DNA of 64,000 bases from Escherichia phage P479: sequence record MW269952.1. The stretch is one strand, 5' to 3'. Numbering within the stretch: position 1 is the first letter of the stretch; each line of letters starts with the position of its first letter. Shown here one piece after another: positions 50,304-51,567 of this stretch. Below the pieces are notes generated by a model. That model worked only from the letters and a program-made list of their open reading frames with translations. It ran no database searches and was not told where the DNA came from. The position numbers and the translations under genes are program-made.

Positions 50304-50636
50304 ATGAACATCAAAACTTACAACGAGTTTTTAGCCGAATCCGCCATCAATGAGACCAAATCAATTGATGATAGTGAAGGCTCTCTGAAATTTGGTTTAA
50401 CCAAAAATGCAGATGGTGTTTTCTTTCAGATTGGTAATGAACGTTTTCAAACGTCCAAATATTCCAAAGCTGCAGTTGAAGCTGTCCTGAAATCTGGTGG
50501 CAAGTGGAAAGGCAAAGAAGGTACTAAAGAAATTGGTATCGCTGTTGACGGTGGTATGGCTTATTTTAAAATTGGCGATGAACAATTTATTATGTCTGCT
50601 CGCGGACGTAAAGAACTGGCAAAACTTTATAAATAA
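50304..50636 (+). CDS. internal-protein-like gene with capsid targeting sequence (MNIKTYNEFLAE)
   Basis: N-terminal K-T-Y-x-E-F-L-x-E resembles the T4 IPI/IPII/IPIII capsid targeting sequence; occupies the T4 ipI slot after 57B; ACGGAG Shine-Dalgarno. Confidence 0.6.
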   Translation: MNIKTYNEFLAESAINETKSIDDSEGSLKFGLTKNADGVFFQIGNERFQTSKYSKAAVEAVLKSGGKWKGKEGTKEIGIAVDGGMAYFKIGDEQFIMSARGRKELAKLYK

Positions 50637-50644
50637 GGTTTCTT

Positions 50645-50917
50645 ATGAAAACTTTCAATGAATTTTTCAACGAGTCCCAACTGAACGAAGAAGTAAAAAT
50701 TAGTAAAGCAGTCAAAGCTATGATTGACAATATCAATCACCTGTATAGCATTGACTTAACTGACCATATAACAATTGGCAACAAACGCAACTTTTTCGCG
50801 TTTGACATTTCAGAACTTGACCAGAACCAAATTAATAACATTGAGCGATTTGCCAATGACAAGGGTCTCCGTCATGAGACAGCTGGTTATAAAAAATATG
50901 CAATTTATCTAAAATAG
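50645..50917 (+). CDS. internal-protein-like gene with capsid targeting sequence (MKTFNEFFNE)
   Basis: CTS-like N-terminus; 90 aa; tandem with neighbours. Confidence 0.6.
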   Translation: MKTFNEFFNESQLNEEVKISKAVKAMIDNINHLYSIDLTDHITIGNKRNFFAFDISELDQNQINNIERFANDKGLRHETAGYKKYAIYLK

Positions 50918-50925
50918 GATTTCAA

Positions 50926-51225
50926 ATGCAAACTTTTCATGAATTTTTGGTAGAAAACAATTACCTGGCAGAAGCAAAAACCTGGCCTCTGGGTCTTCAG
51001 AAGAAAAACACCTACAAATGGGTTGACTTCAAAGGTAAAGGCGACGCTGAAGACTTTGACCAGCTACGCAAAAATGGTTATACCTTCCTTGACTCCAACT
51101 ATAACAAAATTACCTCTTTTAGTCAGAAGTCAAGCATTGCCTTCATTGAAACTGGTAAGAACTCTCCTAAAGATATTTCTGACGACTTCGCCGCTTATGG
51201 TGTAATTCGTGGTTCAAAAATGTAA
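50926..51225 (+). CDS. internal-protein-like gene with capsid targeting sequence (MQTFHEFLVE)
   Basis: CTS-like N-terminus; 99 aa. Confidence 0.55.
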   Translation: MQTFHEFLVENNYLAEAKTWPLGLQKKNTYKWVDFKGKGDAEDFDQLRKNGYTFLDSNYNKITSFSQKSSIAFIETGKNSPKDISDDFAAYGVIRGSKM

Positions 51226-51233
51226 AAATGTAA

Positions 51234-51280
51234 TGTACACGATGGGATAGTTGCAGTATAATTATCCCATCAACTACTGG
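51234..51280 (+). promoter_or_regulatory. early promoter plus stem-loop element (TGTACA, spacer, TATAAT inside GGGATA/TATCCC inverted repeat)
   Basis: Nearly identical copy at 51567-51612 and related copy at 54961-55010. Confidence 0.45.
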
Positions 51281-51288
51281 AGCTACTA

Positions 51289-51567
51289 ATGAAAACTTAT
51301 CAAGAATTTATTAACGAATCAATTAATCACCCGGATATGCTGGAAGACCTGAAAGGACATCTGATGGTTAAGGCCCGACCGGTTGATGGTGGCGCATTTG
51401 AGTTGTTTCTTGTTAAAGGCGAAAACGGTCCTGATAACAAGAAAGTTTCAGCAATGATGTTGACTAAAGGTTACAAAGTCAGTTCTTCCTGGAATGCTCC
51501 ATTCACTTACGCGGTAAGCCCTCGTGAACTGAAAAAAGTTAAAGCTGGACAATATACAAAAATTTAG
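51289..51567 (+). CDS. internal-protein-like gene with capsid targeting sequence (MKTYQEFINE)
   Basis: Textbook CTS-like N-terminus MKTYQEF; 92 aa. Confidence 0.65.
   Translation: MKTYQEFINESINHPDMLEDLKGHLMVKARPVDGGAFELFLVKGENGPDNKKVSAMMLTKGYKVSSSWNAPFTYAVSPRELKKVKAGQYTKI

Follow-up and report, generated by a model that had tools for sequence, protein, structure and literature searches.

Four tandem candidate internal-protein genes in the ipI slot of the T4-type Escherichia phage P479

The internal proteins (IPs) of T-even phages are encoded at polymorphic loci, which were reportedly described, together with the genes ip4-ip13, by Repoila, Tetart, Bouet & Krisch in 1994 (EMBO J 13:4181). In this study, we analyzed such a locus in Escherichia phage P479 (MW269952.1), based on a 64-kb stretch of its DNA (hereafter the window, meaning this whole stretch of 64,000 nucleotides). 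The locus holds four tandem genes, here called ipA, ipB, ipC and ipD, and a fifth gene, ipE, is found at a second position behind the lysozyme gene e. Reviews describe the IPs as diverse defence proteins sharing only a capsid targeting sequence (CTS) (PMC3012670), and in T4 the same ten leader residues suffice for the packaging of foreign proteins (PMC9026906). The T4 proteins Ip1, Ip2 and Ip3 each inhibit a different GmrSD enzyme, with no cross-protection between them (Silas 2025, PMC12373910); IPII and IPIII inhibit GmrSD-ECOR21 and GmrSD-ECOR17, respectively (PMC12373910). IPI* blocks the GmrSD of strain CT596, and IPIII is required for growth on ECOR17 and is also active if the host itself produces it in a form lacking the CTS. 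In addition, T4-type phages carry mobile cassettes termed PeSL (promoter-early stem-loop; Arbiol 2010, PMC2839356; Comeau 2014, PMC4122927).

Genes and other elements in the window were called from open reading frames (ORFs), motif scans, searches against Pfam, NCBIfam and PHROGs, and comparison with related phages and the T4 record. The assignment of the four array genes and ipE to the T4-type internal-protein genes of the classical polymorphic IP locus is well supported by these sequence comparisons. We consider it quite likely that the whole explanation holds, in which the proteins are IPs that would be packaged, cleaved and directed against host defences, and whose genes would be swapped by way of cassettes. 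The five genes and the leaders of their products, with the isoelectric point (pI) of the predicted mature forms, are as follows:

50304..50636, + strand: ipA, 110 amino acids; leader MNIKTYNEFLAE, then SAINE, then T; predicted mature form 93-98 amino acids, pI 9.3-9.5
50645..50917, + strand: ipB, Ip9 family, 90 amino acids; MKTFNEFFNE SQLNE, predicted cut, E; predicted mature form ~75 amino acids, pI 8.3
50926..51225, + strand: ipC, 99 amino acids; MQTFHEFLVE, NNYLAE, A (two predicted cut sites); predicted mature form 83-89 amino acids, pI 9.1-9.4
51289..51567, + strand: ipD, 92 amino acids; MKTYQEFINE, predicted cut, S; predicted mature form 82 amino acids, pI 9.6; phrog_15565, function unknown
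63820..64000, + strand: ipE, fifth gene with a CTS, in the ipIII/ipII slot; leader MKTYQEFLAE; begins 4 nt behind the stop codon of lysozyme e and continues past the end of the window

Leaders, predicted cleavage sites and mature domains

All five leaders fit the pattern M(NI)[KQ]T[FY]xEF[LIF]xE. A scan of the six frames of the window with the motif [KQR]T[FY]x[ED]F[LIFVM]xE gave five matches, every one of them at an ORF start, compared to a mean of 0.01 in 100 base-shuffled windows; a looser pattern yielded no additional cases over the window. An earlier note on this DNA had ascribed a T4-type CTS to each of the four array products and had named coincidental N-terminal similarity as the finding that would speak against it. 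The counts bear out the former and are at odds with coincidence. In the T4 record, the leader of IPII and IPIII reads MKTYQEFIAE and is cut before A, while IPI opens with MKTFKEF and is cut before A after MKTFKEFTSTTTPVSTITE.

Mutagenesis has linked leader positions 4 and 7 to targeting and positions 8 and 10 to processing (PMC9026906). In the window, all five leaders have Tyr or Phe at position 4, Phe at position 7 and Glu at position 10; at position 8, ipB has Phe and the other four have Leu or Ile. The pattern [L/I]xE, at which the prohead protease gp21 would be expected to cut, occurs within the first 17 residues of all five proteins (background 0.012 per residue), with sites ending at residues 12 and 17 in ipA, 15 only in ipB, 10 and 16 in ipC, 10 in ipD, and 10 and 15 in ipE. 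The second downstream site recalls T4 IPI, which is cut at ITE19 and loses 19 residues. In the case of ipC, the second LxE site is kept even in homologues of only 55-75% identity. The predicted mature forms have 8.4-10.7 kDa and a pI of 8.3-9.6, compared to 8.0 kDa and pI 9.0 for T4 IPI*, with IPII* in the same range.

The shared N-termini could also reflect conserved DNA or RNA, serving translation initiation or as a recombination substrate, in which case the proteins would be early, cytoplasmic and unpackaged. Consistent with this, the modules have early-type promoters, and the leader-coding DNA is A/T-rich and adjoins conserved cassettes (see below). However, the leaders are kept as amino acids while their codons vary among the five genes (TAC/TAT, GAG/GAA, TTA/TTG/ATT, ACT/ACG), and ipB and ipC keep the leader with no cassette directly in front of them. 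The packaging of foreign proteins by the 10-residue T4 leader (PMC9026906) and the presence of [L/I]xE in five of five proteins also argue against this explanation, which we regard as very improbable. When read as capsid targeting sequences, the leaders show allelic differences between phages: Ip9 begins with MKTFNELFNE in PSD2001, VR7 and VR26 and with MKTFNEFFNE in the window, and ipC begins with MQTLHEF in VR7 and with MQTFHEF in the window. This variation suggests that positions 4 and 7 tolerate Leu.

Downstream of the leader, the proteins go separate ways. BLASTP comparisons of all pairs of ipA-ipE and T4 IPI-IPIII, made without the first 18-20 residues, gave no E value below 0.008, and a profile-profile alignment of the ipA and ipC families covered the 11-residue leader only. 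The statement of the earlier note that the mature parts of the four array proteins are unrelated is thus confirmed. Searches with the four array proteins returned only noise in Pfam and NCBIfam at E <= 1 and nothing relevant, IPI* included, in PDB sequence searches at E <= 10.

Two of the four array proteins fall into families annotated as internal head proteins. The product of ipB matches phrog_7673 over its full length (1.7e-56, residues 1-90 of 90), and its orthologue is annotated as ip9 in VR7 (“similar to RB32 Ip9”), VR20 and VR26. The product of ipC belongs to phrog_2667 (2e-21), and its counterpart is VR7_gp154. PHROGs places ipA and ipD in families without assigned function; both are “hypothetical” in the records, and no record examined gives either of them an ip name. 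For ipA, some records (VR7, PSD2001) use the upstream ATG at 50271 as start codon. We prefer 50304, since 50271 lies inside the -10 element of the preceding promoter and the homologues open directly with MKTY.

The 55 phage records with a member of the ipA family span several genera of the Tevenvirinae (Edwardsiella PEi20, Citrobacter Merlin, Pectobacterium PM2, Serratia CHI14, Salmonella STP4-a). The gene adjoins 57B in some records and the endolysin in others, indicating that ipA moves between the two IP loci. In contrast to this, ipD is restricted to 17 phage records, all of them Gaprivervirus and all annotated as “hypothetical”, and forms a single 98% cluster in a set of 5.8 billion clustered proteins. 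When 1.84 billion representatives were scanned with HMMER, no credible relative came up outside this cluster. Two matches from that scan, to a PAXIP1_C-like repeat protein and an MBG-domain protein, were discarded as repeat-inflated chance, as they consist of a 25-residue stretch summed over 5-10 repeats. Judged by its sequence, ipD appears to be a true orphan family of this genus.

Several labels in public records were not supported. The automated annotation of the EAWsc9 record names ipA “profilin”, ipC “homing endonuclease” and a neighbouring ORF “RimM” (1809-2141, 2431-2730 and 3960-4436). Searches of Pfam, NCBIfam and PDB supported none of the three labels, which look like weak structural matches that were read too far.

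Array organization, cassettes and related phages

The window belongs to the Gaprivervirus phages (VR7/SP18 group) and shows 97.6% identity to PSD2001. At least 22 sequenced Gaprivervirus phages, including PSD2001, TH41, UPEC01, VR7, VR20 and SP18, share the full length of the array region at 92-98% identity. The four + strand ORFs lie in tandem between 57B/Acb1 and trna.4, preceded by gene 3, gene 1 (dNMP kinase), 57A and 57B and followed by trna.4 and trna.3. Since the interval from 57B to trna.4 holds ipI alone in the T4 record, the earlier note was right in placing four genes where T4 has one, and its fifth gene, MKTYQEFLAE at 63820, was also found directly behind e, which is a T4-type lysozyme gene (63322-63816). 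The slot is bounded by two genes:

49788..50243, + strand: 57B homologue, Acb1 (anti-CBASS phosphodiesterase); Pfam PF23474, 1.5e-59; T4 gp57B-like in VR20 and VR7; left boundary
51625..51810, + strand: trna.4 homologue, 61 amino acids, membrane-like; phrog_1692, 1.2e-32; annotated as Trna.4 in VR20, VR7 and PSD2001; right boundary

In most records 57B is labelled “57B / RNA ligase”, whereas Pfam identifies it as Acb1, an anti-CBASS cyclic-nucleotide phosphodiesterase. A known anti-defence gene thus directly adjoins the IP array.

Each of the four array ORFs has a Shine-Dalgarno-like sequence (GGAG, AAGG or AGGA) 5-9 nt upstream. Only 8 nt separate ipA from ipB and ipB from ipC, so that these three genes form one module and ipD forms another. 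The modules are delimited by three mutually homologous intergenic cassettes of ~55 nt, which start at 50244, 51233 and 51567, each at the stop codon of the preceding gene:

50244..50285, + strand: cassette 1; TGTACA-17 nt-TATTAT overlapping the stem-loop GTGTAGG...CCTACAC; -14.8 kcal/mol; aligns with the 57B-ipI cassette of T4
51233..51271, + strand: cassette 2; TGTACA-17-TATAAT in the stem-loop GATGGGATAGTT...AATTATCCCATC; -17.3 kcal/mol, z -2.6
51567..51605, + strand: cassette 3; TGTACG-17-TATGAT in the same stem-loop; -19.5 kcal/mol, z -4.3; 3' end ATCAACTACTGAGGAGAATAAA

The promoter part resembles the consensus TTTACW-N17-TAYWAT given for the PeSL promoters of T4/PST (PMC4122927/PMC2839356), with TGTACA-N17-TATAAT in the window. 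An example of the stem-loop is GATGGGATAGTT...TATCCCATC. The cassettes do not resemble classical terminators, as their -10 element is part of the hairpin and there is no U-run behind it. In T4, similarly designed cassettes lie on either side of ipI (10016-10091 and 10380-10452 of the T4 stretch), and the 3' end of cassette 3 equals the T4 ipI-trna.4 spacer: the last 22 bases before trna.4 are identical between T4 and the window.

Comparison with related phages revealed different combinations of modules between 57B and trna.4:

Window and PSD2001: A-ip9-C, then cassette, D, then cassette
VR7 and VR20: A-ip9-C, cassette, D, cassette, ip6, cassette
VR26: A-ip9-ip5, cassette, ip6, cassette
EAWsc9: A-ip9-C, 45-nt stem-loop without promoter cassette, ip5, cassette, 84-amino-acid IP, cassette
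YenP8: A-ip9-ip5, cassette, 84-amino-acid IP, cassette, 73-amino-acid IP, divergent spacer

Wherever the window, VR7, VR20, VR26, EAWsc9 and YenP8 differ in a module, that module is bounded by cassettes. From this comparison of related genomes we infer that homologous recombination between the 55-nt cassettes would add, remove and swap IP genes as modules.

The second locus varies as well. In PSD2001, gene e is followed by a homologue of T4 IPII, whereas the window has ipE, which encodes 89 amino acids in phage 212. The second locus of these two phages (PSD2001 3806-5253; phage 212 3001-4402) contains three more CTS genes split by denV, namely IPII or ipE, an 87-amino-acid ipC paralogue and a 99-amino-acid protein, and differs between phages that are near-identical in the first locus. 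The paralogue is 38% identical to ipC and would lie beyond the window end. Taking both loci together, the whole phage probably carries about seven IPs.

Head proteins have to be made late. The exact late-promoter motif TATAAATA has 19 matches in the window against 5.25 expected. Two of them concern the array:

49334..49341, + strand: TATAAATA within gene 1, ahead of 57A-57B and of the array
50628..50635, + strand: TATAAATA, in overlap with the stop codon of ipA and 9 nt upstream of the ATG of ipB; predicted mRNA leader of 4 nt

The function of the motif at 50628 is uncertain, since the leader would be very short and the mRNA almost leaderless. Read-through transcripts from 49334 are a possible source of late array RNA; late expression of the IP genes would come from either of these motifs or from read-through.

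Proposed mechanism and possible targets

Judged by sequence features that agree with the rules established by experiment in T4, the N-terminal CTS of ~10 residues would dock each protein on the gp22 core during prohead assembly. The protease gp21 would then cut after the Glu in [L/I]xE, removing 10-17 residues, so that a basic protein of 8-11 kDa would stay enclosed together with the DNA. At infection, the protein would be ejected along with the DNA and would therefore be present in the host before phage gene expression. By analogy with T4 Ip1, Ip2 and Ip3 and their three GmrSD variants, the likeliest job of such a protein may be to disarm a host nuclease or a sensor of incoming DNA, each domain having its own target. 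Both partners of the presumed head pathway are encoded in the window:

18431..19069, - strand: gp21 prohead core protease; Pfam Peptidase_S77, 8.1e-102; enzyme expected to remove the leaders
17580..18398, - strand: gp22 scaffolding core protein; Pfam T4_CASP, 5.2e-91; thought to be the docking structure for the CTS

They are part of a complete T4-type head block with late promoters at 14276-21325 on the - strand (gp20 (portal), gp67, gp68, gp21, gp22, gp23 and gp24). Hence, the candidate IP substrates and the protease are encoded on the same 64-kb fragment.

An anti-defence role is plausible by precedent, and the precedent invoked by the earlier note, IPI as an inhibitor of GmrSD, is indeed found in the literature cited above. 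A number of observations weigh against this reading or parts of it. Tests of Ip4-10 against GmrSD variants showed no inhibition that could be reproduced; Ip9, to whose family ipB belongs, was part of this set (PMC12373910). According to two comparative studies, Gaprivervirus phages have no hydroxymethylcytosine (hmC) synthase (gene 42) but keep dCTPase, denA, denB and alc, and their DNA probably contains an unidentified base (PMC8056088, PMC12115623). The 5-hydroxycytosine pathway has been assigned to other genera. Given the reported absence of hmC synthase and the probably different modification, a target of the GmrSD type is not a given, and the relevant host nucleases may differ from those that attack T4. 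For ipA, the structure prediction, which is reasonably confident, points to a fold of nucleic-acid binders instead of that of IPI*. Moreover, no virion proteome of a Gaprivervirus phage was found in the searchable literature. With respect to expression, the promoters at the modules are early-type, whereas head proteins need late ones, and the array has one exact late motif; T4 ipI shows the same early-type cassette arrangement. Finally, ipB has Phe three residues before Glu10 (FNE), which is non-canonical, and its first canonical site is LNE15. The claim of the earlier note that the Glu after the leader fits the L/I-x-E rule accordingly stands for ipA, ipC, ipD and ipE, whereas ipB departs from it at Glu10.

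The basic charge of the mature forms allows for another explanation, in which the packaged proteins have a generic role: they would neutralize the charge of the DNA, aid packaging or ejection, or coat the incoming DNA, with no specific inhibition involved. All predicted mature forms are basic (pI 8.3-9.6), lysines of T4 internal proteins contact DNA phosphates (PMC3012670), the predicted ipA fold is typical of single-stranded DNA or RNA binders, and Ip4-10 stand without a reproducible GmrSD target. Such a role would leave unexplained why unrelated mature domains are swapped between near-identical phages. Furthermore, three of three T4 IPs now have specific targets, and IPIII is active in the host without its CTS. 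We therefore consider a purely generic role unlikely, and specific action against host defences is the explanation we favour for the set as a whole.

For ipA alone, a related possibility deserves separate consideration. The structural model, built from a 12-sequence alignment, has a mean predicted local distance difference test score (pLDDT) of 76.7 (82-89 over residues 31-100) and a predicted template-modelling score (pTM) of 0.64. Its topology is four strands and a helix, twice ((beta4-alpha)x2), within a single domain. The two halves are homologous at profile level (hhalign probability 95%, E 2.9e-8), indicating an internal duplication. The model may thus represent a PC4/Whirly/PUR-like nucleic-acid-binding fold, which we treat as a lead and not as membership: Pfam and NCBIfam gave no match to a curated PC4, PUR or Whirly family at E <= 1, and a PDB profile search gave nothing relevant. 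Compared to the PC4-like/Whirly/PUR/MRP1-2 family (PMC7549692), ipA is much shorter (~90 versus ~140-150 residues) and shows no sequence similarity. The topology of the model corresponds to the type I “PC4-like” domain, known from proteins that bind single-stranded nucleic acids (PMC7549692); other proteins have this fold and do not bind nucleic acids. On the basis of this model, the widespread ipA family may act via nucleic-acid binding, and ipA could be an injected binder of single-stranded or distorted DNA, of DNA ends or of RNA, serving as a shield or decoy at entry and in this respect unlike IPI*. We hold this to be doubtful, although somewhat less so than the generic role for all IPs. 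The AlphaFold2 (AF2) model of ipC, by comparison, had low confidence and was too weak for interpretation.

A bolder version combines several of these elements. In this version, which starts from the lack of an hmC synthase gene in the genus, the approximately seven injected proteins might be aimed not at GmrSD but at yet undiscovered defences that sense the particular DNA of these phages. The product of ipA would then represent a new functional class among the IPs: with its PC4/Whirly-like fold it would bind nucleic acid and not an enzyme, either to shield or mask the DNA on entry or to sequester a nucleic-acid signal. The orphan ipD would be an effector of recent origin. As a single claim, we put this forward as speculation with rather low odds of being right, below those of the generic role.

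Apart from the question of targets, the analysis has consequences for annotation: ipA and ipD, now “hypothetical”, “profilin” or similar, and ipC, named “homing endonuclease” in one record, are candidate internal proteins. It also provides a shortlist of five, probably seven, candidates for injected effectors from a genus that is being considered for phage therapy and in which a large set of IPs occurs together with a DNA modification of unassigned type. After the 2025 result for Ip1-3, such uncharacterized IPs appear to be reasonable probes for new type IV or other first-response defences.

Comparison with known systems

Variable IP arrays have been described since 1994, and their kind, mechanism and presumed role are already known from the literature of 1994-2010, reinforced in 2022-2025. 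The novelty implied by the earlier note does not hold up in this light: the array region occurs in at least 22 phages, and the records of relatives already list two of its four genes as coding for internal head proteins. The loci reportedly described in 1994 match the window in having two sites (57B-trna.4 and e-denV), small ORFs that vary in number and identity, and a conserved leader of ~11 residues. They are also reported to have flanking cassettes of ~55-70 bp that mediate shuffling and in which an inverted repeat overlaps an early promoter, as in the window. No difference in kind is apparent; the phage under study is a Gaprivervirus and not a Tequatrovirus.

The NMR (nuclear magnetic resonance) structure of T4 IPI* was reportedly determined by Rifat et al. 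in 2008. The array shares with IPI/IPI* the slot, the CTS, the IxE cut, a small basic mature form and the type of flanking cassette. The resemblance ends at the mature domains: none of the four resembles IPI in sequence, and the ipA model does not retrieve IPI*. The leader of T4 IPII and IPIII is near-identical to those of ipD and ipE, and ipE lies in their locus, whereas the mature domains of IPII and IPIII are unrelated to those of ipA-ipE.

Like the PeSL elements, the cassettes in the window combine an early promoter with a stem-loop, lie between variable genes of a hyperplastic region and are found at indel boundaries. They differ from PeSL in a lineage-specific stem (GATGGGATA/TATCCCATC), in the position of the -10 element within the hairpin and in having no terminator-like U-run. 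A more distant parallel is offered by DarA, DarB and Hdf of phage P1 (PMC12810830): these proteins are reportedly packaged in the head and injected to protect the incoming DNA, and are similar to the IPs in concept. The P1 proteins are unrelated to the IPs and use another packaging route, which has no CTS/gp21 system.

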